Below are positions 4,046-39,798 of a stretch of 39,798 nucleotides of DNA, in pieces (the first letter of the stretch is position 1; each line of letters opens with the position of its first letter). The translations under genes were made by a program, and so were the position numbers. Origin of the DNA: an uncultured Candidatus Saccharibacteria bacterium. GTDB taxonomy: Bacteria; Patescibacteriota; WWE3; UBA101185; UBA10185. The DNA lies in assembly GCA_964535155.1 (NCBI GenBank), contig CAZHSR010000001.1, positions 13,896-53,693 of the forward strand, in the 5' to 3' direction. The notes beneath the pieces are model-generated. The model was not told the origin of the DNA. It did not search any database and saw only the letters and a list, made by a program, of their open reading frames with translations.

Positions 4046-4285
4046 TTAGAATAATCTAGCTATAAAAAGCACAAACAGCGCCCCTATAACCGCAATTACA
4101 ATGGAAGGTAGGTTAAATCCCGTTACATCCACTCCAAAGAGCTTTTGTCCCAAAAATCCACCTACAATAGCCCCAATAATTCCAAGGATAATTGATCCCA
4201 CTATGCCCCCACTCGAACTCGGGGAAATAAAATTGGCAATACCTCCAACAATTAATCCAAAAACGATCCAGTAAATAATACTCAC
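4046..4285 (-). CDS. GlsB/YeaQ/YmgE family stress-response membrane protein
   Basis: 79 aa, glycine-rich TM repeats (MSIIYWIVFGLIVGGIANFI...GAIVGGFLG). Confidence 0.8.
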   Translation of the reverse strand: MSIIYWIVFGLIVGGIANFISPSSSGGIVGSIILGIIGAIVGGFLGQKLFGVDVTGFNLPSIVIAVIGALFVLFIARLF

Positions 4286-4354
4286 TTAAATCACCTCCAG
4301 TACAGTTTAAAACTAGCAATAAATACGACTAACCAACTAACTAACAGCTAGCTT

Positions 4355-4795
4355 TTAGCCTTGCTGCTTCTCTCCTGAAAGGATTTGGACTAGCTTAACT
4401 ATTCCCCAGGCTGCAAAGGCATATGCGAACAAAGCCACTATTGTAGCGGGTTCAAAAATTGAGTTAGCCTCCAACCCCTCTGATATTCCTCTACTAAATA
4501 TACCTTCAAAAGGTAAGATGAAAATACCTGTTATGCCGTAGATGAAGTTGACGAAAGCACTTGCACTACTTGCAGCGGCCAACTTAAAGACTAAGCGGAA
4601 GGCTAGTAATGCTTCAAGAATTCCAAAACCAAAGTAGATTAAATATTCTATAGTCTGGGAACTTGTAGCAGCAGTTTGCACTTGTGTAGCCATTACTGGG
4701 TTACTTTCTTTACCTGTAGGATTATTTAACATTGTTGTATCCTCATGTCCTTGGGTAGTTACTGTCTCTTTAATTATTTCTGTCATTTTTATCAC
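4355..4795 (-). CDS. YggT-like membrane protein
   Basis: LEALLAFRLVFKL...FVNFIYGITGIFILPFEGIF resembles the YGGT repeat. The N-terminal tail is low complexity. Confidence 0.45.
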   Translation of the reverse strand: MIKMTEIIKETVTTQGHEDTTMLNNPTGKESNPVMATQVQTAATSSQTIEYLIYFGFGILEALLAFRLVFKLAAASSASAFVNFIYGITGIFILPFEGIFSRGISEGLEANSIFEPATIVALFAYAFAAWGIVKLVQILSGEKQQG

Positions 4796-4844
4796 CTGCT
4801 TTCGGTTAAAATCAATACGCTTTAGCTAAAAACAATTCTATGCT

Positions 4845-5069
4845 TTATTTTCTGTCTATCTGATCTCTAATGTCAACTTTTTTTATGATGGTTTCTTTTG
4901 GTAAATAGTTGAGAAGGGCTTTTTCAATAAGGGCCGTTAAAGTTAAATTTTCAACTACTGCCTGTGCTCTGGCTTGTGTGGCAATGGATGGGTTAATAAA
5001 TATGGTTACTCTTTGTTTGGTATCACTTGACATATTACAAGTATTACATGTATTTGTAATACTTGTCAA
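4845..5069 (-). CDS. small ribbon-helix-helix-like protein (74 aa)
   Basis: RVTIFINPSIATQARAQAVVENLTLTALIEKALLNYL has a beta-strand then two-helix pattern like CopG/RHH. Weak. Confidence 0.4.
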   Translation of the reverse strand: MTSITNTCNTCNMSSDTKQRVTIFINPSIATQARAQAVVENLTLTALIEKALLNYLPKETIIKKVDIRDQIDRK

Positions 5070-5077
5070 TAGCAGGA

Positions 5078-6673
5078 TTAGTTTAAAGGCAGGGAACTCC
5101 TTATATTAAAGATTGGCACACCTTCCCGATTTATGCTGGTTATCAAAGGATATATTTCCTCAAAACCTTTTAGCTTGTCCTTGTGCGTGTCACAAATTAT
5201 AATATTGGCATCTTCCGCGCCATCCACTAGTCCAAACTTAAATTGTGAATAGTAAACAACTGGAAACTTGCTATCACAAGAATATACTTTTAAATCTTCT
5301 ACCTCGTGAGAAACTGCAAAATCTCTTACATACTCAGCAGCTTCCTTGTAGGCAGCTCCCCAATAGTCAACATCAAAATTTCCTGAAACATTTTTTAAAC
5401 CGCCTGTTAATTCGTTAAAATAAATGTATTCGTAGGGATGCAAATGTACCATCCGATAGGCGGTGAACATAAAGTAAATACCTACAACTGCAACTACAAT
5501 CTTGCAGATGTGAAAATTTAATGTTTTAAAAACATCCAAAAAGAAAAACCCAGAAATTAAAGTTACTAGAACAACTAAATACAAAAAGTGCCTAATTCCA
5601 TTGTAAACAACGGGTTTTATTGCCAAATAAATTGCAAAATTTAAAAGACAAAGGATTGTTAGTAAAACCAAGGGATGATCTTTTTGATATTTAAGCTTTC
5701 TTTTCAACATAAGAAGCATGCCCGCCAAAAGAGGAAATAAGCTAAATAAAGGCATCTTTATACCCAAATAAACAAATAAGTAATGCCAAGGTCTTTCAGA
5801 TTTTCTTAAATATTCTCCAAAATAAATAATCTCGTGATTCCAATCGGCATATCCAGCAGCATTAACCAAAAGCCCATAAAAATTAAGGGGAAGATTTGCA
5901 CCAAGGAAGGGGAGGGCAATAATCCAAATGATAAGAGAAACAATAAAAATTAAAAGGGATTTAAGGCAAAAGTTAAAAAAGGCTTGAATATTGTGCTTTT
6001 TAAAGGGAAGAAAATCGGAAATTCCTAGGAAAAAATAGACCATCAATAAAGTTAACCCAACAACTCTTTGACTTTGTGCAAGCCCAAAAATTACGCCTAA
6101 AACTAAAATTTCCAAAAGCTCATTTTTCTTACGAGTTCTAAAAAAGTAAATTTCCAAAGCTCCCAAAAGGAAAATTGTAGCAAAAGGAATATCCTTTGGA
6201 TTTGCGGGAATATGCCCCAATAAATAAGGGGAAAAAGCAATAAATAGGGGAGCAAGAATAGCCTTTTTTCCACTTTTGTAATGCAAATAAAAGAGTACAT
6301 AAGAAAACAAGAACAGAGACCATCCAAAAAGCATGTTTTGCAAATGGAACCACTCAAAATAATAATTTGGGTTAAAAATATTAACCAAGGCGGGATAAAT
6401 TCTTGAATAAACGCTAAACAACGGAAGGTGCCTATGCTCAATATGAACGGGCTTTTTGTTTACTAAATTTGAAACATAATCCAAGGAAGTTGGGGTTTGA
6501 TAATAAGTAAGCAAATACTTTCCCGCGTCGTACTCTACTTTTTCATCGTATGTAACACCAAAGTCCTTGTAGGTTAAAAAGGAAAAAGCTAGATATAAAA
6601 GGGTAAAAATTAAGAAAAGAAAGTGGCTCTTTAAAAAAGACTTAAATTTTTCCAAGAATCTTAAAATCCTCAT
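5078..6673 (-). CDS. GT-C fold membrane glycosyltransferase (ArnT/PMT-like)
   Basis: 531 aa polytopic protein. An acidic motif (TYDEKVEYDAG) lies in the first loop after TM1, followed by a soluble C-terminal domain, as in GT39/GT83 enzymes. Confidence 0.65.
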   Translation of the reverse strand: MRILRFLEKFKSFLKSHFLFLIFTLLYLAFSFLTYKDFGVTYDEKVEYDAGKYLLTYYQTPTSLDYVSNLVNKKPVHIEHRHLPLFSVYSRIYPALVNIFNPNYYFEWFHLQNMLFGWSLFLFSYVLFYLHYKSGKKAILAPLFIAFSPYLLGHIPANPKDIPFATIFLLGALEIYFFRTRKKNELLEILVLGVIFGLAQSQRVVGLTLLMVYFFLGISDFLPFKKHNIQAFFNFCLKSLLIFIVSLIIWIIALPFLGANLPLNFYGLLVNAAGYADWNHEIIYFGEYLRKSERPWHYLFVYLGIKMPLFSLFPLLAGMLLMLKRKLKYQKDHPLVLLTILCLLNFAIYLAIKPVVYNGIRHFLYLVVLVTLISGFFFLDVFKTLNFHICKIVVAVVGIYFMFTAYRMVHLHPYEYIYFNELTGGLKNVSGNFDVDYWGAAYKEAAEYVRDFAVSHEVEDLKVYSCDSKFPVVYYSQFKFGLVDGAEDANIIICDTHKDKLKGFEEIYPLITSINREGVPIFNIRSSLPLN

Positions 6674-6721
6674 GGAAAAAGTATATCAAGTAGAAAAGCT
6701 GTTGTAACCTTTAAAGCTTAA

Positions 6722-7627
6722 TTAAGGCGTTTCCAACTCAATTTGCACATGCGCCACATCGGGAAGGGCTTCATTTATTTCAACCTTAATCCTATCCATT
6801 AGGCGCTCAATCTCATCCGTTGTTAAGCCGTTTCTAACATGCACTTCCAAATTTACCAATAATTTTTCTGGACCAATAATTGTGCCTTTTAAATCAAGCA
6901 CTTCTAAAACCTCTGGCTGTTCTAGGACTGCTTCCTTAATTTTTTCTTTCTGAGAGTCGGAAATACTTAATCCAATAAGCAAATCCTTAACCGAAAGGAT
7001 GATGCCCCGAGCAAAAACCATTATTAACACACCAATTAAAATGGCGCCAATAGCATCAAATTGGGGGTTGCCCGTAAGGATATAAATCAATAGAGCCAGA
7101 ATTCCAACTAATGCTGCCAAAGTGCCAATTAAATCCAAGATCAGGGAAGTCTTTAGGTCAACTAAAAGTGAGTCCCGATACTGATCCCGTATAGATTTAC
7201 CTTTCTGCAAAAAGAGGCCCTTATAATTTAGACAAAAAGAATAGCCATTACTAACAACCGCAACTCCCAAAATGATAAGTGCAATATGAATGTTCTCAAT
7301 TGGTTGCGGATTTAGAAAACGAGTCACGCCAGAATAAATGGAAAGCCCAGATAATGCTGTTGCCATAACAATGGATGTGATTAAAACCCAAAAATACATT
7401 TCCCTGCCATACCCAAAAGGATGCTTTTTATCCGCCCGTTTATTGGAACGATTTAAGCCTACAAGGAGGAAAGTAGCCGAGGCGGTATCAACAATTCCTT
7501 GGAGGGTTTCTGCAAGCATGACCACACTTCCTGTGAGGAGGAGGGCAAGTAGGCTTAAGGAAATGTCGAGCAGGTTTACAAAAAAGCCTGTTAAAAGTAT
7601 TTTCTTAGTTGTGATTTTTTTTGACAT
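6722..7627 (-). CDS. cation diffusion facilitator (CDF) family transporter
   Basis: Six TM segments, KKHPFGYGR signature and a C-terminal cytoplasmic alpha/beta domain. Confidence 0.85.
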   Translation of the reverse strand: MSKKITTKKILLTGFFVNLLDISLSLLALLLTGSVVMLAETLQGIVDTASATFLLVGLNRSNKRADKKHPFGYGREMYFWVLITSIVMATALSGLSIYSGVTRFLNPQPIENIHIALIILGVAVVSNGYSFCLNYKGLFLQKGKSIRDQYRDSLLVDLKTSLILDLIGTLAALVGILALLIYILTGNPQFDAIGAILIGVLIMVFARGIILSVKDLLIGLSISDSQKEKIKEAVLEQPEVLEVLDLKGTIIGPEKLLVNLEVHVRNGLTTDEIERLMDRIKVEINEALPDVAHVQIELETP

Positions 7628-7634
7628 AAAAACC

Positions 7635-8792
7635 TTAAACAGGCAAAACTACCCAAAAAGTACTCCCCTTATAGTCACCTTCAGAAAAGCATCCAACTGA
7701 ACCTCCCATGGCCTCCACAAATATCTTTACTGCATATAAACCCAAACCCGTTCCTCCAGATATAGCCATCTTCTTATAAGAGTTCTCCACTCTTCCAAAT
7801 TTTGTAAAAAGCTTGGAGATTTCATCTTTGCTTAAACCTACGCCACTATCAATTACCGAAATCTTTAATTCCGTTTCCTTTTTCTCAATCCTAACCGTAA
7901 TACCTCCTTTATCCGTAAATTTGATTGCGTTATTCACCAAATTTAAAAAGCATGATTTTAACTTCACTTCGTCATATAAAACTTCCATATTTTTGTCACA
8001 ATTCACTAAATCCAGTTTTAAGTAAATATTCTTTTCATTTGCTTGCGGGATAAAGGAATTTACCACATCCTCAACAAGTTCAACAATCTTCCCAGGGACA
8101 ATATTAAATTCCAGCTTTCCCTGTTCTACTCTAGAAATATTTAACATATCATTTACCATGGAAATCATTTGCTCCGTACTTTTAGAGGCCATATCCAAAT
8201 ACTGATTAGCATCAGAATTACCTAGTGGTGTAAGTTCCTCTTGCAATAACCATAAAACACTTTTTATAACAGTTAGGGGACTTCTAAGCTCATGAGATGC
8301 TAAAGAAAGAAAGTCATCTTTTGCCTTATCCAACAGGATTTCCTTTGTTACATCCGACATTGTAATTAAGCATTCAGACTCATTGGGATTAACTTCCGAG
8401 TCGATCTGGGAAAATTTTACATTTAGATAATAATCTTGTTGATCAGACTTTAAAATTAGGTTGTATAAAACTGGCATTTTCTGTGGAGGTAAAAAGCAAT
8501 ATTGCTTAATATCTATAGGAACGCCTTCTTCGTTTTTCAAATGAATTACATGATCAATATTTTTCCCCAAAACACTATGCCCTGGTAATCCAAGCATTTT
8601 TTCTAGGGCGTTGTTAAAAATGGTTATTTTATAATCAGTGTCTAGAGCAAAAACCCCTTCGGATACGTTATATAACAAATCTTCCGCACGCCTTCGTTCC
8701 TTTAGTAGCTCAAGGTTTCTCTTATATATTTCTTGGGCAATATCTTCTTTGGGATTTTTAGAAACGATGGGCATATTTGGATTATACAACAA
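7635..8792 (-). CDS. PAS-domain sensor histidine kinase (soluble)
   Basis: H-box SHELRSPLT, N box LVNNAIKFT, G boxes DSGVGL and GGTGLGL. A PAS-like N-terminal half; no TM segment. Confidence 0.85.
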   Translation of the reverse strand: MLYNPNMPIVSKNPKEDIAQEIYKRNLELLKERRRAEDLLYNVSEGVFALDTDYKITIFNNALEKMLGLPGHSVLGKNIDHVIHLKNEEGVPIDIKQYCFLPPQKMPVLYNLILKSDQQDYYLNVKFSQIDSEVNPNESECLITMSDVTKEILLDKAKDDFLSLASHELRSPLTVIKSVLWLLQEELTPLGNSDANQYLDMASKSTEQMISMVNDMLNISRVEQGKLEFNIVPGKIVELVEDVVNSFIPQANEKNIYLKLDLVNCDKNMEVLYDEVKLKSCFLNLVNNAIKFTDKGGITVRIEKKETELKISVIDSGVGLSKDEISKLFTKFGRVENSYKKMAISGGTGLGLYAVKIFVEAMGGSVGCFSEGDYKGSTFWVVLPV

Positions 8793-10516: not shown

Positions 10517-11416
10517 TTAAACTTTCTTTGTAATAGTATATTTCTTGAGAAAATGATCTGGATTATACGAAACCTTAGCTTTTCGTAAACCCTCAAGACC
10601 AGTATCCTGCTCAACATTTTGAAATTTATAGCCGTTCTCAAACAAAAATTTGGCTGTAACATATTCCATCATGTAAAAACTGGAATTGTAATCCCTGTTA
10701 GATGCCCCAAAATGACTGAGAACTATTTCTTTGTTTAGTACCTCGCTGGAAAGGTAAGCCGCCATAACTCCTTCCACATAAAGACCTAAAGTTATACTTT
10801 CAAAGAAGGGAAGGTGTTTAAAATATGTATTAATAATGCCACCTTCTTCTATAATCTTTTCTTCATCAAAACCTTTGTCCAAAAACCACTTGTGACTTAA
10901 ATCTTGAATTTCCTTTAGCACTTGAGAATCATTTATATCCAAGGGCTTAACTTCATATTTTGGAAACATTCGTGTAAAAATGTTTATCTCTTGCCGAAGG
11001 TGCTTAAACTTGGGACCTTGGGTCTCACATACTTTTTGAGTGGAATAAATATAGTCAAAACTGTCTCGGTCGGGTTGGATGTCAAAATCTTCACTTGAGG
11101 AGAGATTTAAAATAACATCTTCTGGAACAAAGGAAAGTTGAGGCATATCTTGCAATAAGGTATGAAGCGACTCCTCAATATTATTCCTTCCCAATATAGA
11201 ATATACGTTACCTTCTCCCAAATAGTCTTTAATTCTTATGACCAAATTCTCATCCAGTATTGAAAAGCTATTATCCTCATTTGCATTCCAAGAAAGTAAA
11301 CTTAATATATTGAAATCGGAGTATGAAGGGAATTCTTTGCAAAAGCTAGAAAAGAAATCTTTATCGCCTATGGTAACTTTTTTAAAATCTGGATATTGTG
11401 CAAAGTCTTTTTCCAC
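10517..11416 (-). CDS. DUF2156-like (lysyl-PG synthase C-terminal-like) protein
   Basis: Size (299 aa) and the N-terminal pattern (KKVTIGDKDFFSSF...YSDFNILSLLSWN) resemble the DUF2156 family. From memory only. Confidence 0.45.
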   Translation of the reverse strand: MEKDFAQYPDFKKVTIGDKDFFSSFCKEFPSYSDFNILSLLSWNANEDNSFSILDENLVIRIKDYLGEGNVYSILGRNNIEESLHTLLQDMPQLSFVPEDVILNLSSSEDFDIQPDRDSFDYIYSTQKVCETQGPKFKHLRQEINIFTRMFPKYEVKPLDINDSQVLKEIQDLSHKWFLDKGFDEEKIIEEGGIINTYFKHLPFFESITLGLYVEGVMAAYLSSEVLNKEIVLSHFGASNRDYNSSFYMMEYVTAKFLFENGYKFQNVEQDTGLEGLRKAKVSYNPDHFLKKYTITKKV

Positions 11417-11462
11417 GGAGGAATTATAACAAAATAGAATTTGTGTTATTATAAAAATCTAT

Positions 11463-12194
11463 ATGGGAACAATTTTATTAATTACAGCAGCAATATTAGG
11501 AACAGGAGCATCCTTAATTTTTGTAGAGTATTTGGCCGAAGCTTCCTTAATAACCGCTTTTTTCCTAGCAATTGCAATTTGGCTACCCACGAACACAGTC
11601 TTTGTCAAAGGTTTAACAGTGGTAAAAAATGTAGGCGTTGCCCTTGTAATATTTACCATATCCTCTACCATTTCAGACACACTTGGTGGATTATTCCTTC
11701 AGGGAGCCATACAAAATGTAAAAAACCCTTATTTTATAATCATGGGTCTAACTGCGGGAATAGCTGTAATAGTCCTGCAATCAAAGGAAAATACCGAGGA
11801 AAAAAAGGCAGATCCGCACAGAGAAAAATTACTATACATTGCTGGAATCTTAAGTCTTGGATTAGCAATTATCTTTAGAGAAGTATGGTGGATTCTTATA
11901 ATAATATATGGACTTGTAAATCTTTGGACAGCTTCTTGGGCAGATAAAATGTCGGAAAATCATTCCCTATATATAACCGCAATAGCAACATCGGCGCCAT
12001 TAATTTTTGTTGTAATGATTCTTCTCCAAGAGGTAGGAAATGTTGCTATTGTAGGGCCTTCAGCAACAATTATGAGTTGTGGAATGGCAATAGTAGGGGA
12101 TAAGTGGAGAACAAAAACGCCTCAAAATTTAAGAGGGGCATTCTTGGTGGCTTTATCCGCACTATGCATCGGTTTGATTTACTTTAGCTTCTGA
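11463..12194 (+). CDS. polytopic membrane protein, unknown function
   Basis: 243 aa with several hydrophobic helices. The alternative-frame ORFs 11441-11878 and 11459-11680 are rejected. Confidence 0.6.
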   Translation: MGTILLITAAILGTGASLIFVEYLAEASLITAFFLAIAIWLPTNTVFVKGLTVVKNVGVALVIFTISSTISDTLGGLFLQGAIQNVKNPYFIIMGLTAGIAVIVLQSKENTEEKKADPHREKLLYIAGILSLGLAIIFREVWWILIIIYGLVNLWTASWADKMSENHSLYITAIATSAPLIFVVMILLQEVGNVAIVGPSATIMSCGMAIVGDKWRTKTPQNLRGAFLVALSALCIGLIYFSF

Positions 12195-12337
12195 TAGCTT
12201 CATAATATTTCACAAGCATAAGCTCAAAATTTTCATAAATCCCATAATAAGTATTGACAGTCGCAATTTTTTATCTATTATAGACAAAGTAGGTAAATAT
12301 CTTTTTTCAAGTATTAAGATAAGCCCACTGCTCAAAT

Positions 12338-13150
12338 ATGAAGCTAAGAAAAACACTGACATTCTTGTGCACACTACTCTTCCTTTTATACTCTCTTTTA
12401 TGGCTCTATTTGGAATTATTTGTGAGCCCAGAAAGTCCTATCCGAGGCTATTATTCCCTAACTTACGGAATTGTTGCAGGGTTTGGCGGAATAGTTGGCT
12501 TAATAGTAGCCAAAAAATGGGGTGGAAGAAAAAGCTATGTTGGTAAATCCCTAATTTTCTTTTCTCTAGGACTTTTATTTCAATTTTTGGGCCAAAACAC
12601 TTATTCAATCCAATACCTAATCGATGGGATTGAAAATTCATACCCATCTTATGGAGAAATATTCTTTGTTTCTACTATACCAAGCTATATTTTAGGTGTC
12701 TGGTATATTGCAAAAGCCTCAGGCTCTTGGGAATCACTAAAATCAGCAAAAGTTAAGCTCCTTTCAACAGTCCTTCCTGCTTTAATGGTTATTACTTCAT
12801 ATTATTTCTTTGTAAAAGGAACCATGGAAGAGGGGCAATCTCTGCTTATCTCTGCATTGAACTTTACCTATCCAATGGGGCAAGCAATATTTGTATCCAT
12901 GGCTATAATGGCATATTTTCTATCTAATAAATTCCTTGGAGGAATCATGAAGAGAAGAGTTATATTTATACTGGCAGCACTTGTATTTCAATACATTGCG
13001 GACACAGTATTTTTATATAAAAGCATATATGGAACTTTTTACATGGCAGATTTTACGGAGTTTTTGTTTGCAATATCTTATGCAATTATGACTTTCTCCT
13101 TCCTTGACTTTTTTAAAGTTTCTATACAACTGCAAGAGGGAAACCAATGA
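12338..13150 (+). CDS. polytopic membrane protein, unknown function
   Basis: 270 aa, about 7 hydrophobic segments. Its stop overlaps the next start (ATGA at 13147). Confidence 0.6.
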   Translation: MKLRKTLTFLCTLLFLLYSLLWLYLELFVSPESPIRGYYSLTYGIVAGFGGIVGLIVAKKWGGRKSYVGKSLIFFSLGLLFQFLGQNTYSIQYLIDGIENSYPSYGEIFFVSTIPSYILGVWYIAKASGSWESLKSAKVKLLSTVLPALMVITSYYFFVKGTMEEGQSLLISALNFTYPMGQAIFVSMAIMAYFLSNKFLGGIMKRRVIFILAALVFQYIADTVFLYKSIYGTFYMADFTEFLFAISYAIMTFSFLDFFKVSIQLQEGNQ

Positions 13151-13377
13151 AACCAGAAACATTAGTACAAGATATTATTAAAGAGCAGAGCCAAATAATA
13201 GGCGAAAATTTGGCAATAAGTAGGGCTAAATCCAGTGGGGCTGTTATCTTTAGTTCAAATAGCATTGAGGGTTTGCAATTTGCCACAACTAACTATATTG
13301 AAGCACTAGAAAAAGTAATTGGATCTTATGAGGAAGTATTTGGAAAGCCTCATTTGAAGTTTGTGTCTCTGTTATAA
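13147..13377 (+). CDS. hypothetical protein (76 aa)
   Basis: Start is translationally coupled to the upstream membrane protein. Confidence 0.4.
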   Translation: MKPETLVQDIIKEQSQIIGENLAISRAKSSGAVIFSSNSIEGLQFATTNYIEALEKVIGSYEEVFGKPHLKFVSLL

Positions 13378-31658: not shown

Positions 31659-31706
31659 CTTCAAAGGATTGGAGCATTTTAGAAAGGCCCCTAAATAATT
31701 GAAACT

Positions 31707-31735
31707 TTACAACCCATCGTTAGAAAGTATATAAT
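31707..31735 (+). promoter_or_regulatory. candidate sigma70-type promoter of abiEi-1 (TTACAA-17-TATAAT) with TAGAAA/TTTCTA inverted repeat over the -10
   Basis: -35 at 31707-31712 and -10 at 31730-31735, with the ATG at 31747. Inverted-repeat arms at 31721-31726 and 31735-31740. Confidence 0.4.
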
Positions 31736-31746
31736 TTCTATAACTT

Positions 31747-32391
31747 ATGAACGACAAAACCACAAAAACAACCCCAACTAACCCACCAAAACCCAAGGCT
31801 AAAACAACCAAGAGCCTCCTTGAACCCCTTACCACAACCACCAAGACAGTTTTTACAACTCAAGACCTTAATAAAATATGGCAATATGAAAACTATAAAA
31901 GCCTGATTCAACGCATTTCATACCTTTCAAAAGCAGGGAAAATTCAAAAAATTAAGCGCGGAATCTATTCCTTCCCAAATCGTCCAATAAATGAGTTGGA
32001 GCTTGCAAATAAAATCAAAACCCCCTCATATATTTCCTTTGAGACAGTTCTCTATATAGAGGGGATAATTTTCCAGTGGGATAACCGAATTACTTTAGCA
32101 GCAAAAGATTCGCGTGAAATACAGATTCAAAATGACCCACTAGCACTTAAAATAGTATTTAGGAAAATTAAAGACGAGATTCTGCTTAATCCAACGGGGA
32201 TAATTCCAGAGAATAATTATTTTGTGGCTTCAAAAGAACGAGCAATGCTAGATATGCTTTATATAAGCCCAAATTTCACCTTTGATAATTTAAGAAGTAT
32301 TGATTTTGCCAAACTAAAAGAAATGGCTCAAATTTATAATAGAGCCTCAATTTTTAGGGCAATAGAAAGGCTGGAAAAATATGTTAGATAG
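31747..32391 (+). CDS. AbiEi-family type IV antitoxin (copy 1)
   Basis: wHTH-like region (LIQRISYLSKAGKIQKIKRGIYSF), then SYISFETVLYIEG and ASKERAMLDMLY, as in AbiEi. Overlaps the downstream toxin gene by 11 nt. Confidence 0.75.
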   Translation: MNDKTTKTTPTNPPKPKAKTTKSLLEPLTTTTKTVFTTQDLNKIWQYENYKSLIQRISYLSKAGKIQKIKRGIYSFPNRPINELELANKIKTPSYISFETVLYIEGIIFQWDNRITLAAKDSREIQIQNDPLALKIVFRKIKDEILLNPTGIIPENNYFVASKERAMLDMLYISPNFTFDNLRSIDFAKLKEMAQIYNRASIFRAIERLEKYVR

Positions 32392-33145
32392 ACTAAAACA
32401 TGAGACTACAATGCGAAACATCTTGGATGATATTTACAACGATAATTTTTTGTCAAATAAACTTGGCTTTAAAGGTGGAACCTGTGCATACTTTTTTTAT
32501 GAATTGCCCAGATTCTCTACCGATTTGGATTTTAACTTGATTTCTACAAGGGACTCAATCGATGAGAGTAAAGGCACAATTGAGGATGAAAGCTCTAAAA
32601 GTACGCTGGCAAATCAAGTCTTTGAAAAATTGGAAGAACTGCTAAAGAAACATGGCGAGGTTAGGGACAGACACATTAAGGCAAATACTATATTCTTTTA
32701 TGTTGTACATACGCCAAATAAAAGCGGTATAAAAATTGAAATTTCAACAAGAGAAATAGAAAAAATCAATGCATACGAATTGAAAGAATTTTATGGAACA
32801 TCTTTTTTAATTATGAAGCGAGCGGATTTATTTGCAAACAAGTTATTAGCTTTAACAATGCGTGTAAACCCTTCGGCTAGGGATTTGTATGATATAAATT
32901 TTTTCTTTTCAAAAAACTGGGATATAAATGAGAATGTGGTTAGTGAGGCGTCTGGAAAAGCTTTTTTGGAATATGTAGAGGCGTTGCCAAAGTTTATTGA
33001 AGAAACTTTTAATTCTGCAAATGTGCATTTGGGATTGGGGGAGCTGTTAAAAGGGCAATCGGAAAGGGATTTTGTTAAAAGAAAGTTAGTAGAAGATACT
33101 GTAAATAAAATTAGGTTTTTTGTGGATGCGCATAAGAGATTTTAG
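32381..33145 (+). CDS. AbiEii/AbiGii (DUF1814) nucleotidyltransferase toxin (copy 1)
   Basis: FKGGTCAYFFYELPRFSTDLDFN is the hallmark NTase motif. Also a later ARDLYDI motif. Confidence 0.85.
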   Translation: MLDRLKHETTMRNILDDIYNDNFLSNKLGFKGGTCAYFFYELPRFSTDLDFNLISTRDSIDESKGTIEDESSKSTLANQVFEKLEELLKKHGEVRDRHIKANTIFFYVVHTPNKSGIKIEISTREIEKINAYELKEFYGTSFLIMKRADLFANKLLALTMRVNPSARDLYDINFFFSKNWDINENVVSEASGKAFLEYVEALPKFIEETFNSANVHLGLGELLKGQSERDFVKRKLVEDTVNKIRFFVDAHKRF

Positions 33146-33214
33146 CTTGTAATCTTTTAAAGGTTATCCCTTAATCGTTTTAGAAGCCTAAATTCTATTT
33201 AAGAGTAAAATAGC

Positions 33215-33297
33215 AAAAAACAAAAAAGCCCTTGGTCTCCCAAGAGCTTTCCTGCCATCCTCTCTTTACTTATGATTAACATAAGAGAAGCATCGAC
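33215..33297 (-). ncRNA. candidate small RNA A (hairpin + GNRA-looped intrinsic terminator)
   Basis: On the minus strand: TGGTAAAAT extended -10 (complement of 33304-33312), hairpin 33269-33285, and terminator stem 33228-33247 (a G-U pair forms only on the minus strand, loop GAGA) followed by U6-G-U6. No ORF larger than 7 codons. Confidence 0.3.
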
Positions 33298-33323
33298 ATG
33301 GTTATTTTACCAAATATGTAGCG

Positions 33324-33394
33324 AACAAAAAAGCCTCTGTATAAACAGAGGCTTTCTTGCATCCAACACTGAAAATTCAGTGGGGCCTTGACAT
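33324..33394 (-). ncRNA. candidate small RNA B (paralogue of A)
   Basis: On the minus strand: TAAAAT (complement of 33401-33406), hairpin 33367-33382, and terminator 33331-33354 followed by a U-run. It shares the GGATG(G)CA(G/A)GAAAGC linker with unit A. Confidence 0.3.
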
Positions 33395-33458
33395 AAGATG
33401 ATTTTACACTAGATCCCAATATTTATCAAAAATAGTTGAAACTATCCGAATTTATAAT

Positions 33459-33505
33459 AATTTGTAGACCCAACTCTACGAATTTCGCTAAATTTGTAGA
33501 CCCAA
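33459..33505 (+). repeat. 15-bp direct repeat AATTTGTAGACCCAA x2 (33459-33473, 33491-33505), 32-bp period
   Basis: Read directly. Lies upstream of the DGR RT gene. Confidence 0.85.
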
Positions 33506-33507
33506 TG

Positions 33508-33650
33508 AAGGATAATCCTTGCAGGAAATAGAACTTTTGGTGTTAGCAACAGGACAAAGCCCGTTTTTTATGAAGGATTATCCTTGGGCAATATAGCCCC
33601 TTAGACTTTAGCAACAAGCAGAAGTGCGTATTCGGCAAAGGATTATCCTT
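33508..33650. repeat. palindrome array 6: AAGGATAATCCTT 33508-33520, AAGGATTATCCTT 33573-33585 and 33638-33650
   Basis: Read directly; exact 65-bp register. It ends 6 nt before the RT start codon. Confidence 0.9.
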
Positions 33651-33656
33651 TAAGAT

Positions 33657-34838
33657 GTGTTCCAAACTTTGCTAAGCGCGTACAAACAATGTCAAAAGAA
33701 CAAAAGGCTAAAAACCTCTTCAGCTAAATTTGAAATAAACCTAGAAAAAGAGCTGATTTCCTTGGAAGCCGACCTAAAATCAAAAACATATAACCCGGGC
33801 AGGTTTTCCGTATTTGTAGTTACTGAGCCAAAAGTAAGAGAAATATTTGCCGCGGAGTTTAGAGACAGAGTTATTCATCACATTATTGTTAATCACATTC
33901 AGCCTGTCTTTGAGCCAAAATTTATTTATGACAGCTTTGCCAATCGAAAAAACAAAGGCACTCACTTAGCGGTTAAAAGGTTGCAAATTTTTGCAAGAAA
34001 AATTACAAAAAACGGCAATCAAAAGGCGTTTTATTTACAGGCAGATATAAAAAACTTCTTTCCTTCCATTAACCACAACATTTTGTTTAACTTAATAAAA
34101 AAACATATTCACAACAAAGAAATTCTAGACCTTACAAAATTAATAATTTTCCATGATTGCACACAAAATCCCATTAGAAAAGGACATCCAAGTTTATTTC
34201 AAAAAGTTCCGCCTCAAAAATCTTTGTTTTTTACACCAAAAGGGCAAGGCCTTCCAATAGGAAATTCAACCTCCCAATTTTTTGCAAATGTTTATTTAAA
34301 TGAGCTAGATCAGTATGTGAAGCATTCTTTAAAGTGCAAATTTTATGTACGATACGTGGATGACTTTGTCATTTTGGATATAAATAGAGAAAAACTGGAA
34401 GAGATTTTGCAAAAAATTAATGTGTTTTTACTGGAAAAATTGGCACTAGAGTTGCATCCAAATAAATGCAAAATAGAGGTGATTTCTAAGGGAATTGATG
34501 CCTTGGGATATGTTATTAAGCCAGATTATTTGATTGTTAGAAAAAGGGTAATCAAAACCTTAAAGAGAAAGTTGTGGGAGTTTAAGAGAATGGTAGGGGA
34601 AAACGAGGCGAGACGGGAAGGGACGAAGAAGGGAGAAAACGAGGTGGATTGGGAATTTATTGTATCCAGCATCAACTCCTATTATGCCCATTTTGGACAT
34701 GCAAAAAGCTATAAATTACGGAAAAACCTTTGGGAAAAACACTTTGGAATTTTAAAAGACTATCTAATTCCAATAAACGGATATAAATACTTTAAATTAA
34801 AGAAAACTAAGAGCCCCAACCAAGCTAAAAAAAGCTAG
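33657..34838 (+). CDS. DGR-type reverse transcriptase
   Basis: 393 aa, GTG start. Motifs: PKVREIFAAEFRDRVIHH, SFANRKNKGTHLA, LPIGNSTSQFFANVYLNELD (the DGR-typical IGxxxSQ) and the catalytic box YVRYVDDFVIL. No maturase or endonuclease domains. Confidence 0.92.
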   Translation: MFQTLLSAYKQCQKNKRLKTSSAKFEINLEKELISLEADLKSKTYNPGRFSVFVVTEPKVREIFAAEFRDRVIHHIIVNHIQPVFEPKFIYDSFANRKNKGTHLAVKRLQIFARKITKNGNQKAFYLQADIKNFFPSINHNILFNLIKKHIHNKEILDLTKLIIFHDCTQNPIRKGHPSLFQKVPPQKSLFFTPKGQGLPIGNSTSQFFANVYLNELDQYVKHSLKCKFYVRYVDDFVILDINREKLEEILQKINVFLLEKLALELHPNKCKIEVISKGIDALGYVIKPDYLIVRKRVIKTLKRKLWEFKRMVGENEARREGTKKGENEVDWEFIVSSINSYYAHFGHAKSYKLRKNLWEKHFGILKDYLIPINGYKYFKLKKTKSPNQAKKS

Positions 34839-34854
34839 AGTTGGAGCCCAAAGT

Positions 34855-34999
34855 TAAATACTTCCAGGGACGCAACACAACCCGAAACCCGATATTACTA
34901 TTTGCATTACTAGTGTTATTGTTATTGACATTGGAACAACTAGAGTTGCCTAAGATCCTTGCATTAGTTGTATTGTTGGCGGCGGAAGCCCAACTATAT
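34855..34999 (-). repeat. DGR template repeat (TR)
   Basis: About 145 bp homologous to 35817-35962. Its minus-strand frame is rich in AAC/AAT codons (WASAANNTTNARILGNSSCSNVNNNNTSNANSNIGFRVVLRP). Confidence 0.9.
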
Positions 35000-35360
35000 A
35001 GGCAACAAAACAAAAAAGCAAAGTGTCAGGACAAATAACACCCATGTTTGTTAGTCTCTTCACTTTTGCGGTTTAATAAACCCTTTAGAAACCAATCTCA
35101 TATTAACCAATAAACAGAGTATGGTTTCTTGCATAGATCCTCAAAGCTTTTTTAGTTACTCAATCCATATTTATCTGCAATCTTTGGCCTTAAGCCAATT
35201 TATATTGCAGGAAAGAGACCGAAGTATTTTTTGGCCAAGGTTTCTAACCTTGAAACAAAGCTTGCTGTTAGGCTGGCTTTGTTACACTTTTGAGCCGTTT
35301 AAGGGTCTTTTAAACTAGTTCAAAATTCTGGCCAGGGCGATGAGTGGGCAAATAGAAGGA

Positions 35361-35699
35361 CTAGGACGATTTTATCCAGCCTCCTAACATTTTACCCACC
35401 TCATCTACATATTTTGAAAGAACTTCATATTTTTTAACACCTATTATTTTTAAACCAAAACATAACCGAATGTAAATACGCATACGGTCTAAATGTGTAT
35501 TTGCTTTCTTTAAATGGGGCTTTTTGTTAATTTCAGAATTGGCAATAATTATACAGTCTAAAAATTCCAAACAGGCTGTCTGTAGGCTTTGTCCCAGGCT
35601 ATATCTATATTCTTTTGGAAATTTATGTATTTCTTTATATATTCTAAGAAGAAGATCATAAGATTTTTGAAAGATGGTAAGTTGTGTATATTGTGCCAT
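35361..35699 (-). CDS. avd: Avd accessory variability determinant (four-helix-bundle family)
   Basis: 112 aa. IFQKSYDLLLRIYKEIHKFPKEYRYSLGQSL...LDRMRIYIRLCF...VGKMLGGWIKS fits the Avd / 23S-rRNA-IVS four-helix-bundle pattern. It lies between the target gene and TR. Confidence 0.8.
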   Translation of the reverse strand: MAQYTQLTIFQKSYDLLLRIYKEIHKFPKEYRYSLGQSLQTACLEFLDCIIIANSEINKKPHLKKANTHLDRMRIYIRLCFGLKIIGVKKYEVLSKYVDEVGKMLGGWIKSS

Positions 35700-35712
35700 A
35701 AAAATTTTTTGC

Positions 35713-35800
35713 GTTCTTTGCTACGCAAAGAACTTGGTTCAAGCCTTTGGCTTGAAAACCTTTTGCTTTGCAAAAGGTTATGCAGCCACTACGTGGCTGC
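35713..35800. other. four tandem perfect stem-loops, each with a 3-nt loop (35713-35733, 35738-35756, 35757-35779, 35782-35800)
   Basis: Stems of 9, 8, 10 and 8 bp with no mismatches. Plus-strand loops are TAC, TTT, TTT, TAC. The array lies between the VR end and the avd start. Confidence 0.85.
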
Positions 35801-35816
35801 TCAAATGAGCAGAGTC

Positions 35817-35962
35817 TAAATACTTCTCAGGGACGCAACACAACCCGAAACCCGATAGTACTACCAGCACCACTAGCGCTATTGAGAAAGACAAGGGAAC
35901 AACTAGAGTAGCCTAAGATCCTTGCATAAGTAGTATTGTAGGCGGCGGAAGCCCAACTATAA
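35817..35962 (-). repeat. DGR variable repeat (VR) at the 3' end of the target gene
   Basis: With TR coordinate + 963 = VR coordinate, there are 18 mismatches. All fall at plus-strand T in TR, which is A on the coding strand. Confidence 0.9.
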
Positions 35963-36801
35963 TTAGTATCACCGTCGTTGCATGTCTTCCTGTTAGCATA
36001 AAATAACCCCCCGTAACAGGCCAAGGGATAGTCATTACTTGAGTGTTGCTCACAGGCATTTTGGAAATCATTACCTACACTCGTACTGGACGCGTAATAT
36101 GGCAAAGCAGACTTACTTCCTGTTGCCAAAGCCCATGTTGCTAAAGAGGCATTTACTGCAGCTAAATCAGCACCCAAACAGCCATTCCCAGTACATAAAT
36201 CTCTGGTGCCGTCTAAACAATCGGAAATTGCCAATGCAGAAATACTGCTATACCCAGCCGAACCATTATGAGAACTGGTTATGGTTACACTATTTACACT
36301 AGAAACCAACTTGTACCACTGACCAGCTGACGCTGCTATCATTCGGTCCTTGAGTGCGGGAACATCACTGGCGCAAGTGTAAGCCCCGGGGTTATCAACA
36401 TCATCTCCAACCCCTTTATTCCAGCTCACAGTGTCTGCCAAAGTCTTAGACCAGCAGGCACCTCTTCCGTTGGTTTCGTACCAATACCAACCAGAGATTG
36501 AGTTGCAGTTACATTCGGTTAAAGTGGACCAAGTAGCTTCTGATAATAAGACCTGACCATTACAAATTGTCATATCAACTTTGGAGGCAATTTGTTCTGG
36601 ATCGTTAAAGTCTTCCGTAACGGAAAGGGAAACGGCGCGGGCAACAAGGGTTAAAATGGAAATTGTGGCAATTAAAACGGTGGCTACTATTGTGCCAAGG
36701 ATTATTCGGGATTTTTTTGTGGCGGGGAGGGCACGGAGGGAAGTGGGCAAGGTGGTAAGGGGGATTTTGCTAAATATTTTTGTAAGTTTTTTTAAGGGCA
36801 T
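35827..36801 (-). CDS. DGR target (variable) protein: N-terminal TM anchor, Cys-rich ectodomain, C-terminal CLec-type variable region
   Basis: 324 aa. TM segment IILGTIVATVLIATISILTLV. The C-terminus WASAAYNTTYARILGYSSCSLVFLNSASGAGSTIGFRVVLRP aligns with the TR frame. Confidence 0.9.
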   Translation of the reverse strand: MPLKKLTKIFSKIPLTTLPTSLRALPATKKSRIILGTIVATVLIATISILTLVARAVSLSVTEDFNDPEQIASKVDMTICNGQVLLSEATWSTLTECNCNSISGWYWYETNGRGACWSKTLADTVSWNKGVGDDVDNPGAYTCASDVPALKDRMIAASAGQWYKLVSSVNSVTITSSHNGSAGYSSISALAISDCLDGTRDLCTGNGCLGADLAAVNASLATWALATGSKSALPYYASSTSVGNDFQNACEQHSSNDYPLACYGGLFYANRKTCNDGDTNYSWASAAYNTTYARILGYSSCSLVFLNSASGAGSTIGFRVVLRP

Positions 36802-36869
36802 GTTTCATTAAAATATACACTTCTGTACATTTTATTGCAACCTAAATAAAAACTGGTGTATCAAATAAG

Positions 36870-36905
36870 AGATAATTGACACAGAAGGTAATTATCTAGT
36901 ATAAT
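36870..36905 (+). promoter_or_regulatory. candidate promoter of abiEi-2 (TTGACA-18-TATAAT, near-leaderless) overlapped by inverted repeat AGATAATT-N12-AATTATCT
   Basis: -35 at 36876-36881 and -10 at 36900-36905, with the ATG at 36912 only 6 nt after the -10. Inverted-repeat arms at 36870-36877 and 36890-36897. Confidence 0.5.
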
Positions 36906-36911
36906 CTACAC

Positions 36912-37661
36912 ATGGAAGACATAAAAATTATTGAACTTGTCCTTATAAAAAAAGGCCGAATTGTAACAAATGCAGCATTAAGCAAATATCTAGGTACATA
37001 TATAGATGTAAACAAAAAAATTTCCTCGCTTATAAAAAAAGGATTTTTGGTGAAACTAAAAAAAGGGACTTATTACATTGCTAAATTAGGAAGTTTAAGC
37101 TACATCTCTATATCCAACTACCTAATAGCAAATATTATAGGGGAGAAGTCCTTTGTTTCTTTTGAAGCAGCCCTAAAATTCCATGGGCTATTTGACCAGG
37201 GGATTAGTAAATATAGGTCTATCTCATTAAAGCAATACTTAACCAAAAATTTGGAGGGAATAAGCTATGAATACATAAAAGTTAAGCAGAATCAGTATTT
37301 TGGGTTTAATCTTGAAAGAGTTGATGGGGGAAACGCGGAAATTGCTACAAAGGAAAGGGCACTATTGGATCTTCTTGAATATAAAAGGTCCATTAGTACT
37401 GTAAGTTTAGTTTTGGAAAAATTAAGCACATATAAATCGGAGATTAATTTTAGTCTGTTAAACGAATATGCGGAAAATTATTCGCAGACGACAATAAAAA
37501 TATTAGGTTTATTACTGGATATTTTAGAGATTGATAGCAAGGATTTGGAGGGGTTAATTAATAAAAAATCAACTTCTCGCATGCTAAAGGATTCCGATAA
37601 ATTCAGTAATAAATGGAGACTTTATTACAACTCTATATTGGAAAATCAAATTAATGATTGA
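36912..37661 (+). CDS. AbiEi-family type IV antitoxin (copy 2)
   Basis: ISSLIKKGFLVKLKKGTYYI wHTH region, SFVSFEAALKFHGL and ATKERALLDLLEY. Overlaps the toxin gene by 8 nt. Confidence 0.75.
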   Translation: MEDIKIIELVLIKKGRIVTNAALSKYLGTYIDVNKKISSLIKKGFLVKLKKGTYYIAKLGSLSYISISNYLIANIIGEKSFVSFEAALKFHGLFDQGISKYRSISLKQYLTKNLEGISYEYIKVKQNQYFGFNLERVDGGNAEIATKERALLDLLEYKRSISTVSLVLEKLSTYKSEINFSLLNEYAENYSQTTIKILGLLLDILEIDSKDLEGLINKKSTSRMLKDSDKFSNKWRLYYNSILENQIND

Positions 37662-38424
37662 TTTAATAACTAGAGAGCAATTGGAATACACCGCCAAATC
37701 GGTATTAAATTATCCCTTACATGATGCCGAAAAAGATTATTTTCTGACACAAGTCATGAAAGTGGTTTCAGAATCATCATTATCAAATGCCCTCATTTTT
37801 AAGGGGGGAACCTCTATATATCATTGTTATCTAGACCAATTAAGATTTTCTGAGGACTTGGATTTTACTGCAATTGATAAAGACATATGCATAGAGGAAA
37901 TTAGGGAGATTTTTGACAAATTGGCTATGTTTGAATTTAAGAAAGAGTATGAATCCACTGCTACAATAAAGATTGAAAGGTTAAAGTATTACGGTATTCT
38001 TGACACTCCAAATAGCATAAAGTTTGAGGTGGATAGAATGCAAAATGTGATATTACCCACAGTCCATAGGCAGTATAAAAATGTGTGGGATTTAGACTTT
38101 TCCGTAAATGTAATGGATCCTGTGGAGATATGTGCAGAAAAATTGCGGGCTTGTAATGACAGGTTTAGATATAGAGATTTTTATGATTTATATATGATGA
38201 TAACCAAGCTAAATATAAACATTAAAAACTCCATATCCCTGATACCCCAAAAGGAAATCAGAAAGCCCTTTTCCAAGGAAAACATTTTAAGAAATTTTGC
38301 TTTAGCATTAAATGAAATCTCAATGGAAGCTGATACGGTTACATATAAAGAAGTTCTGAATACTGAGATTTTGAAAAAATTCTTTGAAGAGTTGAATTTA
38401 TCTCCACTTCAACCTAATGTTTAA
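37654..38424 (+). CDS. AbiEii/AbiGii (DUF1814) nucleotidyltransferase toxin (copy 2)
   Basis: FKGGTSIYHCYLDQLRFSEDLDFT hallmark motif, plus a later YRDFYDLY motif. Confidence 0.85.
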   Translation: MIDLITREQLEYTAKSVLNYPLHDAEKDYFLTQVMKVVSESSLSNALIFKGGTSIYHCYLDQLRFSEDLDFTAIDKDICIEEIREIFDKLAMFEFKKEYESTATIKIERLKYYGILDTPNSIKFEVDRMQNVILPTVHRQYKNVWDLDFSVNVMDPVEICAEKLRACNDRFRYRDFYDLYMMITKLNINIKNSISLIPQKEIRKPFSKENILRNFALALNEISMEADTVTYKEVLNTEILKKFFEELNLSPLQPNV

Positions 38425-38459: not shown

Positions 38460-38505
38460 GAGTACACTCCAAATTTTTGTTGATTTTTCTGGAGTACACT
38501 CCAAA
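38460..38505 (+). repeat. 14-bp direct repeat GAGTACACTCCAAA x2 (38460-38473, 38492-38505), 32-bp period
   Basis: Read directly. Lies upstream of the large secreted-protein ORF. Confidence 0.85.
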
Positions 38506-38552: not shown

Positions 38553-39798
38553 ATGTTTCGAGGATTCTCCTGGGTTCTGCCCATTAATAAAAGATTTAGG
38601 TACAAATGTCATCGTTTTTTGATAAGGCCCCTTGTGGCTATTGCTTTGATAACAGTCTTTACCCAAGGATTATCCTTGGCATTTGCAGCCACATACACCT
38701 CAACTGGAACACTCACTTCAAGTAATTTGCTTTCGGGAATTGGCGTATCTTCCATTGACGCCTTTGGATACAACTTAAATTCCCTTCCAGCTGGGACAAC
38801 AGCACAAGTGCAATTTTCCAATGACAATTCCACTTGGTATAGTTCTGCAGGAGTACAAGGCGCCTGGGACACACTTTCACAAGGGGACTTCACATTGGAA
38901 GAAGACGCCATCTCCCTAGCAACATTAGGCTGGTCTGACAATATTTTTTATTACAAGATTCAAATGGATACTTCTGACACAAGTGCAACCGCCACATTAA
39001 CCGAAATAGTGCTTTATTATGCACCTGGTGCATCGGCTGAAACCTTGGATCCTACATATGTTAAGCCAACATCTGCTACAGCTAATGGAGAAATAGATGC
39101 AATTACAGGGGGAAACGCAACGCAAAGGGGATTTCAATATGGCTTAACGGAAACTGCAACCTGGGAAACCAGCGAAACAGGAGATTTTGGGGAAGAAGAA
39201 TATTCGCTGGAAATTACGGGTCTAACCCCAAATACAACTTATTACATAAGGGCTTTTGCAACAAATCCAGAGGGCACAACTTATGGAACCTGGGAACCCT
39301 TTACCACCAGTGAATACGCCACAACTGGTACACTTACTTCCAGCAACATTTTGGACGGCGAAACCGTGGAAGTTATTACCGAATTTGAATACAGCATGTC
39401 AACCATGCCAAGCGGAGCCTCTGCCACAATTCAGTTTAGCGAAGACGGAACCAACTGGTACAACTCCACAGGCGTTTTAAACGGCACCGACGAGCTTTAC
39501 GCCTTAAAAGAAAACAGCGACAGGAACAAAATTAGCCTTTGCGAATTACGCTGGCGAGAACCCACCTTTTACTACAAAGTCCAGTTTACATCCAGTGCCA
39601 GTGGCGACACTCCAGTTTTGGACAGCATCAATGTCACTTATGACGATGAAAATTACACTTGCGGCCCCATTGCTCACTGGAAATTAGACGAGGGTCAAGG
39701 GGTCTCTGCCTATAACAGCGTGGCTTCTGAGGACAGGCAAAGTGCGGGGGCTACTTCGGCACATACTGGGACAATTTCTGGCGCCACCTGGCAAGAAG
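38553..39798 (+). CDS. large secreted/surface protein, 3' end beyond the window (signal peptide, two ~115-aa repeat modules flanking an FN3-like module, start of a LamG/ConA-like domain)
   Basis: Own translation in the frame with codon starts divisible by 3: open from 38550 to the window end. MFRGFSWVLPINKRFRYKCHRFLIRPLVAIALITVFTQGLSLAFAATYTSTGTLTSSNLL...GLTPNTTYYIRAFATNPEGTTYG...YATTGTLTSSNILDG...HWKLDEGQGVSAYNS. The start is uncertain (ATG 38553 or TTG 38619). It is missing from the ORF track because no stop lies in the window. Confidence 0.7.
   Translation, partial: MFRGFSWVLPINKRFRYKCHRFLIRPLVAIALITVFTQGLSLAFAATYTSTGTLTSSNLLSGIGVSSIDAFGYNLNSLPAGTTAQVQFSNDNSTWYSSAGVQGAWDTLSQGDFTLEEDAISLATLGWSDNIFYYKIQMDTSDTSATATLTEIVLYYAPGASAETLDPTYVKPTSATANGEIDAITGGNATQRGFQYGLTETATWETSETGDFGEEEYSLEITGLTPNTTYYIRAFATNPEGTTYGTWEPFTTSEYATTGTLTSSNILDGETVEVITEFEYSMSTMPSGASATIQFSEDGTNWYNSTGVLNGTDELYALKENSDRNKISLCELRWREPTFYYKVQFTSSASGDTPVLDSINVTYDDENYTCGPIAHWKLDEGQGVSAYNSVASEDRQSAGATSAHTGTISGATWQE
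38665..38677. repeat. solo AAGGATTATCCTT palindrome
   Basis: Read directly. It lies inside the predicted signal-peptide coding region (TQGLSLA) of the 38553-39798 ORF. Confidence 0.9.

Follow-up and report, generated by a model that had tools for sequence, protein, structure and literature searches.

AbiE toxin-antitoxin modules of two subfamilies at the borders of a diversity-generating retroelement in a small Patescibacteria genome

A 39,798-nucleotide stretch of DNA (the window) from the genome of an uncultured Candidatus Saccharibacteria bacterium (assembly GCA_964535155.1, here G000) carries two AbiE toxin-antitoxin (TA) operons, one on either side of a diversity-generating retroelement (DGR). 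This arrangement is probably best understood as two autonomous AbiE modules, belonging to different subfamilies and acquired independently, that lie at the borders of a resident and intact DGR. The surrounding stretch is accessory and prone to rearrangement, and the genome, of ~0.8 Mb, is that of a Patescibacteria member, probably of the WWE3 type. The AbiE pairs are hitch-hiking modules, not components of the DGR. Other DGRs have a weak tendency to keep similar company, somewhat above what chance would give.

Two AbiE operons and their probable separate origins

A preliminary description of the window placed two complete AbiEi-plus-AbiEii operons on its plus strand, at 31747-33145 and 36912-38424, flanking the DGR. 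The list of open reading frames (ORFs) returns all four genes at exactly these coordinates, and searches with PADLOC and Pfam models agree with the assignment. In the first pair, abiEi-1 (31747..32391, plus strand) encodes a predicted winged helix-turn-helix (wHTH) antitoxin and autorepressor of 214 amino acids (aa), with an N-terminal extension rich in T, K and P. It is followed by abiEii-1 (32381..33145, plus strand), which encodes a predicted DUF1814 nucleotidyltransferase toxin of 254 aa and overlaps the antitoxin gene by 11 nucleotides (nt). AbiEi-1 is matched by the PADLOC AbiEi model PDLC02255 (E 2e-48) and by Pfam AbiEi_4 (9e-4); its match to NCBIfam TAA_AbiEi (8e-12) is under the cut-off. 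AbiEii-1 scores 73.2 bits against Pfam PF08843 (cut-off 22.5) and matches PADLOC PDLC02324 at 8e-48.

The second pair is built in the same way. Here, abiEi-2 (36912..37661, plus strand) encodes a predicted antitoxin of 249 aa that is recognized by PADLOC AbiEi model PDLC02272 (1e-27) and, under the cut-off, by NCBIfam TAA_AbiEi (4e-6); a Pfam search gave no match to it. Overlapping its end by 8 nt is abiEii-2 (37654..38424, plus strand), which encodes a predicted DUF1814 nucleotidyltransferase toxin of 256 aa that matches PF08843 at 105.8 bits (cut-off 22.5) and PADLOC PDLC02304 at 1e-33. The GGT...RFS(T/E)DLDF and RD(L/F)YD motifs are intact in both toxins.

Each operon has a strong sigma-70-like promoter of its own, on the plus strand. 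That of abiE-1 (31706..31735, TTTACA-18-TATAAT) agrees with the consensus at 11 of 12 positions, and its -10 box is flanked by a short (6-bp) inverted repeat, TAGAAA..TTTCTA. That of abiE-2 (36876..36905, TTGACA-18-TATAAT) agrees at all 12 and is overlapped by an 8-bp inverted repeat, AGATAATT..AATTATCT. These inverted repeats (31720-31740 and 36869-36897) may be AbiEi operators, as would be expected for autoregulation.

The two pairs were first described as paralogous but diverged, and not the product of a recent duplication. The second half of this statement stands. The first is too strong, as the toxins are only 27% identical and the antitoxins 26%, and as the best PADLOC subfamily models differ between the pairs. 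The two pairs are not orthologous to one another. Duplication within the locus was considered as their origin, and was rejected at 26-27% identity. Because identity is this low and the AbiE subfamilies are different, the pairs appear to be separate acquisitions.

The wider genome gives a context for this. G000 is an assembly of 795 kb in 57 contigs, 93% complete, and it holds six AbiEii genes, all distant from one another. Among the matches listed, the closest relatives of AbiEii-2 are 45-50% identical and belong to distant families of the phylum, and no close relative was found within its own class. AbiEii-1 groups with toxins encoded next to DGRs in three other genomes, G314 (41% identity), G411 (38%) and G001 (34%), and its subfamily (the pair-1 subfamily) also takes in the DGR-adjacent AbiEii of three further loci (L078, L085 and L087). 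The GC content of the abiE-2 operon, 31.5%, lies at the 1.3rd percentile of 1.4-kb windows of the genome; that of abiE-1, 34.1%, lies at the 11.6th.

A DGR that is conserved without its AbiE neighbors

The DGR between the pairs is by its sequence complete and real, having an adenine-specific pair of template repeat (TR) and variable repeat (VR), a DGR-type reverse transcriptase (RT) and an Avd protein. The RT gene (33657..34838, plus strand) encodes 393 aa and matches RVT_1 at 2e-24. The TR (34865..34998) is 134 nt long and reads in the sense of the minus strand, which makes it convergent with the RT gene. Next comes avd (35361..35699, minus strand), which encodes 112 aa and matches both bAvd (9e-23) and the NCBIfam equivalog DivGenRetAVD (104.8 bits, cut-off 80). 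The target gene (35827..36801, minus strand) encodes 324 aa with an N-terminal transmembrane helix, and the VR stands at its 3' end, at 35828-35961. Over 134 nt the TR and VR are 87% identical, and all mismatches fall at TR adenines (minus strand).

The preliminary description set a ~6.7-kb block, at 31.7-38.4 kb, between mgtE and a large surface-protein gene, and asked whether it is present or absent as a unit. Both of these neighbors are recovered. The mgtE gene adjoins the block on the left; on the right, a surface-protein gene that is large and repetitive is represented by its 5' part (38553..39797, plus strand), truncated by the end of the contig, C1. An orthologue of the surface-protein gene, 45-49% identical, is found in a sister species of the same genus, G002 (contig C66, 8990-11167), directly beside the RT gene of that genome. 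The surface-protein gene belongs to the conserved backbone, outside the accessory cassettes.

G002 has an orthologous DGR, VR included, with the same unusual RT-convergent layout, in which the RT is 63% identical (aa), the TR 81% (nt) and avd 72% (nt). The start of the G002 RT gene and the orthologue of the surface-protein gene lie 74 bp apart, and the whole of G002, a 93%-complete assembly, has no detectable AbiEii.

The order of genes has also changed between the two species. A separate contig of G000, C35, carries pyk-xseA-ligA, and since these genes are syntenic with those that lie beyond the surface-protein gene in G002, contig C1 probably joins C35. Relative to this backbone of surface-protein gene, ligA, xseA and pyk, the DGR cassette (33657-36801 in the window, 11241-13327 on G002 contig C66) is inverted between the two genomes; in G000, abiE-2 lies between the DGR target and the surface-protein gene. 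On the other side, mgtE is missing from both same-genus genomes that were compared, G001 and G002, and is not usable there as a synteny anchor. Only G018 keeps LctP and mgtE, and there they are followed by a P-type ATPase gene; because the G000 orthologue of this ATPase (71% identity) sits on another contig, C10, the junction between mgtE and abiE-1 is a point of rearrangement. G001 differs again. Its DGR is a different one, with an RT only 36% identical and with all parts co-oriented, and the AbiE pair that lies 2 kb past it belongs to the pair-1 subfamily (33-34% identity).

These comparisons bear most directly on the proposal that AbiE-1, the DGR and AbiE-2 together make one mobile or addiction-stabilized island. 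In its favor, the block is compact and departs from the genome average in GC content, and a contig from a second sample (L042) repeats the order of target, AbiE-2 and surface-protein gene at 99.7% identity. Set against this, the orthologous DGR of G002 stands in that same neighborhood of the chromosome without either AbiE pair, which largely refutes the proposal; neither a recombinase nor terminal repeats were found at the locus, and the nearest relatives of the two pairs belong to different lineages. A single island is therefore very improbable, and the claim that the block moves as a unit is not upheld, given the bare DGR of G002 and, in G001, another DGR accompanied by an AbiE pair of its own. 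What survives of the “defence-associated accessory island” first suggested is its accessory character (the pairs are missing from G002, and the GC content of abiE-2 is low) and the variability of the region; a single block does not.

Exact-protein look-ups gave nothing beyond contigs of 1-2.4 kb belonging to the same study, and the VR in one of them (L045) is identical to that of the window, so that no diversification is seen.

In each of the three species of the genus, a multi-copy ATPase gene (AAA+/DUF4143-type, as read from the sequence only) turns up repeatedly close to the DGR, to AbiE pairs and to backbone junctions: at 3754-5025 of G002:C66 (L039), at 5953-7209 of G001:C30 (L040), and on G000 contigs C2, C12, C28 and C55. 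This gene, too, looks accessory and mobile.

AbiE cassettes beside other DGRs

The preliminary description held that a lack of statistical co-occurrence would speak against any association of AbiE with DGRs. A survey finds a modest enrichment of AbiEii near DGR RT genes; its counts rest on the matches listed. Within the class, AbiEii genes are found in 57 of 134 genomes, in up to 10 copies per genome and often clustered together. Finding two of the six AbiEii genes of a 795-kb genome in a 10-kb interval around its DGR has P ~0.003 under uniform placement. At E < 1e-15 the class has 24 loci with a DGR-type RT, and AbiEii lies within 6 kb of the RT at five of them: at this locus (two genes), on G001:C30, on G115:C2 (5.8 kb), on G086:C16 (0.9 kb) and on G036:C16 (1.25 kb, a weak match).

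In the phylum, a DGR RT was found in 111 of 401 sampled genomes, and the 80 with the best RT matches served for a test of AbiEii together with a control family of toxins. AbiEii is present in 23 of the 80, and 57 have none. It lies within 1.1 kb of the RT in three of them (G411:C1, G314:C2 and G257:C60). For the class and these 80 genomes taken together, with the index locus left out, seven AbiEii genes lie within 6 kb of a DGR RT and 2.1 are expected (P = 0.006). At closer range, three of the 46 AbiEii genes in the 80 genomes lie within 1.5 kb of the RT, against 0.28 expected (P = 0.003). The control, PIN/VapC (PF01850), shows no enrichment in the same genomes: it has 69 genes there, and the 6-kb range takes in a single one (1.35 expected), the 1.5-kb range none (0.41 expected).

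The subfamily of pair 1 was also followed on its own: AbiEii-1 was aligned with the toxins of G314, G411 and G001, and the alignment was used to scan contigs of GTDB genomes. The 80 loci listed are mostly from Patescibacteria, the best being from a WWE3 bacterium (53% identity), and three of them (L078, L085 and L087) have a DGR RT within 2.3 kb, where 0.18 would be expected. In the sample of 401 genomes, 34 members other than the index locus were listed at E < 1e-30. Two of these abut an RT within 1 kb (G314 and G411; 0.04 expected), and one is 7 kb from an RT (G456; 0.29 expected at that range). More than 90% of pair-1-type cassettes, among the matches listed, are not near a DGR. The AbiE-2 subfamily is too rare for a test of co-occurrence, with five close members among the matches listed in 400 genomes.

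Thus, the co-occurrence of AbiE and DGR is real at close range and weak in absolute terms, amounting to ~6% of DGR loci and to 4-6% of pair-1-type cassettes. A weak tendency of AbiE cassettes, mainly of the pair-1 subfamily, to adjoin a DGR RT fits an accumulation or persistence of such cassettes at DGR borders, and not an obligate partnership.

The manner in which cassette and RT gene are joined varies from locus to locus. In the window and in G411, abiE precedes the RT gene and is co-oriented with it; in L087 the RT gene precedes abiE; in L085 and G314 the two are convergent; and in L078 and G001, abiE lies on the avd side. Nor do the proteins share a history. Because AbiEii-1 is nearest to the G314 protein and the RT of the window is nearest to the G411 protein, AbiE and RT show no co-phylogeny.

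This variation argues against a functional coupling, in which AbiEii or AbiEi would act in DGR function itself, through the TR RNA, through tRNA primers or through regulation of the RT. The preliminary description raised such a link for a toxin that acts on tRNA. All that speaks for it is proximity, with abiE-1 upstream of the RT gene on the same strand both here and in G411. Most DGRs do without AbiE (57 of the 80 genomes have no AbiEii), as does the orthologous DGR of G002. A promoter precedes each of the two abiE operons, and abiEii-1 is separated from the RT gene by a terminator-bearing, non-coding gap of 511 bp (33146..33656). Relative orientations vary, the relationships of AbiEii and RT do not track one another, and literature searches found no published link between AbiE and DGRs. 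The link is not supported, and coupling of this kind is very hard to credit.

A more serious competitor supposes that AbiE, above all of the pair-1 subfamily, preferentially inserts or is retained beside DGR RT genes. Possible reasons would be that the cassette favors such sites, or that selection keeps a TA system which protects a costly and deletion-prone DGR from loss. The close-range enrichment is roughly 10-fold or more (3 against 0.28 within 1.5 kb, with 3 of 80 and 2 of 34 pair-1 members abutting an RT), the PIN control is not enriched, and the cassette directly adjoins the RT gene in four of seven pair-1-type cases (the window, G411, L085 and L087), with one small gene between them in G314. 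However, few DGRs (~6%) and few cassettes (4-6%) are involved; side and orientation vary; neither scars nor a conserved junction sequence was found; and G002 retains its DGR without AbiE. The numbers are also small, and the null model takes no account of clustering among accessory genes. As a general account of the neighborhood, preferential insertion or retention is unlikely. In its narrower form, in which the pair-1 subfamily in Patescibacteria specifically lodges or persists beside DGR RT genes, by site preference or by stabilizing selection and not by generic clustering, it gains a little and is still doubtful.

Independent acquisition at the borders of a resident DGR remains the preferred reading, and several points tell against it. 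The enrichment appears to be concentrated in one AbiE subfamily (Fisher P = 0.015-0.04, on small numbers and with denominators estimated from the matches listed). Together with the enrichment near RT genes and the lack of enrichment of PIN, this bias hints at something more specific than generic clustering in islands. The expected values are those for genes placed uniformly over genomes of rounded size. The contig that carries the G002 DGR breaks off inside the VR, and the target-side neighbor of that DGR is unassembled. Lastly, no integrase, transposase, flanking direct repeat or scar turned up that would show how the cassettes arrived. Domain searches found no integrase or transposase nearby. 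Flank alignments, no better than those of shuffled sequence, gave no direct repeats or insertion scars at either cassette, and the same comparison gave no duplication scars at the related loci L078, L085 and L087. The conserved recombination sites and border scars expected of an integron-like, site-specific cassette are not found.

Two observations made during the survey may be recorded beside it. A small AbiEii-like nucleotidyltransferase (152-202 aa, with weak PF08843 matches) adjoins the DGR RT or avd gene in two unrelated genomes, at 7130-7738 of G086:C16 (L051) and at 1730-2188 of G257:C60 (L049); the two proteins are 43% identical and have no obvious AbiEi partner. The stretch of G314 that holds its DGR and AbiE (L048; G314:C2, 4310-15182), as read from the sequence only, looks defence- or mobile-like. 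It contains a 994-aa ATPase/nuclease-like gene, DNA methyltransferase-like and ParB-like genes, and a RadC-like gene of 160 aa between abiEii and the RT gene.

Relation to known systems, and minor features of the locus

How the two modules might work can be proposed by analogy. AbiE has reportedly been characterized as a type IV TA and abortive-infection system in Lactococcus lactis (plasmid pNP40) and in Streptococcus agalactiae (Dy et al. 2014; Hampton et al. 2018, as cited in PMC11863486). The modules here resemble those in having overlapping, bicistronic abiEi-abiEii operons, a wHTH AbiEi, a PF08843 toxin with GG[ST] and DxD-type motifs, and an inverted repeat over the promoter that is consistent with putative autoregulation by AbiEi. 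They differ in that their sequences are very distant, in that both AbiEi proteins score under the cut-off of the NCBIfam equivalog and AbiEi-2 is unmatched in Pfam, and in that their host has an ultra-small Patescibacteria genome with six such predicted toxins.

A second analogy comes from the DUF1814 toxins MenT3 and MenT4 of the MenAT systems of Mycobacterium tuberculosis, which are reported to block the aminoacylation of tRNA (Cai et al. 2020). AbiEii-2 matches PDB entry 6y56 (E 1e-7, over residues 22-179), which we take to be MenT4, and also an AbiGII chain, 9hlo (6e-5). Because nucleotidyltransferase fold and motifs are common to AbiEii-2 and 6y56, tRNA is the putative target here. The antitoxins, unlike those of MenAT, are of the AbiEi wHTH type, and sequence similarity is low.

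On these analogies, AbiEi would repress its own operon and neutralize AbiEii, whose translation would be coupled to that of AbiEi within a self-contained operon with its own promoter. Upon loss of the antitoxin, or upon phage infection, AbiEii would nucleotidylate tRNA, as AbiEii and MenT toxins do elsewhere, and growth would be arrested. The arrest might then serve abortive infection, the post-segregational stabilization of neighboring DNA, or both. The DGR would meanwhile carry out ordinary RT- and Avd-dependent adenine mutagenesis, from TR to VR, of its membrane-anchored target, with AbiE uninvolved. Toxicity, autoregulation and a role in defence or stabilization are accordingly put forward for the two modules as predictions from analogy.

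TA modules stabilize genomic islands and cassette arrays, examples being mosAT on SXT and the TA cassettes of chromosomal superintegrons. To call the present locus “addiction-stabilized” is to extend this concept to TA operons that border accessory DNA, a plausible conjecture. This locus departs from those examples in that searches for an integrase, for attC-like sites and for flanking repeats came up empty, and in that a sister species keeps the DGR without the TA pairs.

The DGR itself is of a familiar type. DGRs are reportedly found in Patescibacteria (the candidate phyla radiation, CPR), the prototype being that of Bordetella phage BPP-1 (Paul et al. 2017; Wu et al. 2018). The DGR of the window shares with them an RT, an Avd, an adenine-specific TR/VR pair and a C-terminal VR in a membrane-anchored target. 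It differs in that its RT gene is convergent with TR, avd and target (a layout kept in G002), and in having AbiE at both borders.

Taken alone, then, the locus adds two AbiE modules and a CPR DGR to kinds already known. The value of the locus is comparative: it shows AbiE cassettes to be highly abundant, independently exchanged cargo in ultra-small genomes, and DGR borders to be places that collect such cargo. Should the enrichment survive a phylum-wide test, it would suggest a preference of the cassettes in insertion, or a TA-mediated stabilization of hypermutation loci. Both ideas matter for the question of how costly accessory functions are kept in streamlined symbionts.

Some smaller features of the locus remain to be listed. 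The 511-bp gap contains two hairpin/terminator units on the minus strand (~33219-33256 and 33326-33359). It also contains a tandem repeat of 32 bp (33440-33503) and a palindrome, AAGGATNATCCTT, in three copies (at 33508, 33573 and 33638) that run right up to the start of the RT gene. G002, where the RT gene begins 74 bp from its neighbor, has no counterpart of this gap. An Rfam search of the region gave sub-threshold matches only, and a tRNA search of it found none.

The hairpin units, called small RNA-like at first (33216-33406), have partial paralogues in G000, at C30:3504-3584 and C55:1750-1784, and in G001, at 7786-7827 of C30 (L040). The copy on C55 lies 23 bp past the stop codon of another AbiEii gene (88% identity over 35 nt); the one in G001 (83% over 42 nt) is on the contig that bears a DGR and an AbiE pair.

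The 13-nt palindrome AAGGATNATCCTT occurs in 63 copies in the 795-kb genome, where ~0.1 would be expected. The window has 17 of these, between 18518 and 38677. The palindrome forms intergenic mini-arrays of two or three with a strict spacing of ~65 nt; one copy (38665) stands inside the signal-peptide codons of the surface-protein gene. The arrays were considered as a mark of the island, and this was rejected because the palindrome is genome-wide. It is seen only in loci of this species, and not in the loci compared from G001, G002 and G018. Another sequence, GAGTACACTCCAAA, is found twice, 31 nt apart, at 38461-38505, between abiEii-2 and the surface-protein gene, and nowhere else in the genome. 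Finally, G000 has a second RT gene, in the region C14:15499-18181, which encodes 408 aa, is 28% identical to the DGR RT and is followed by an ORF of 492 aa.

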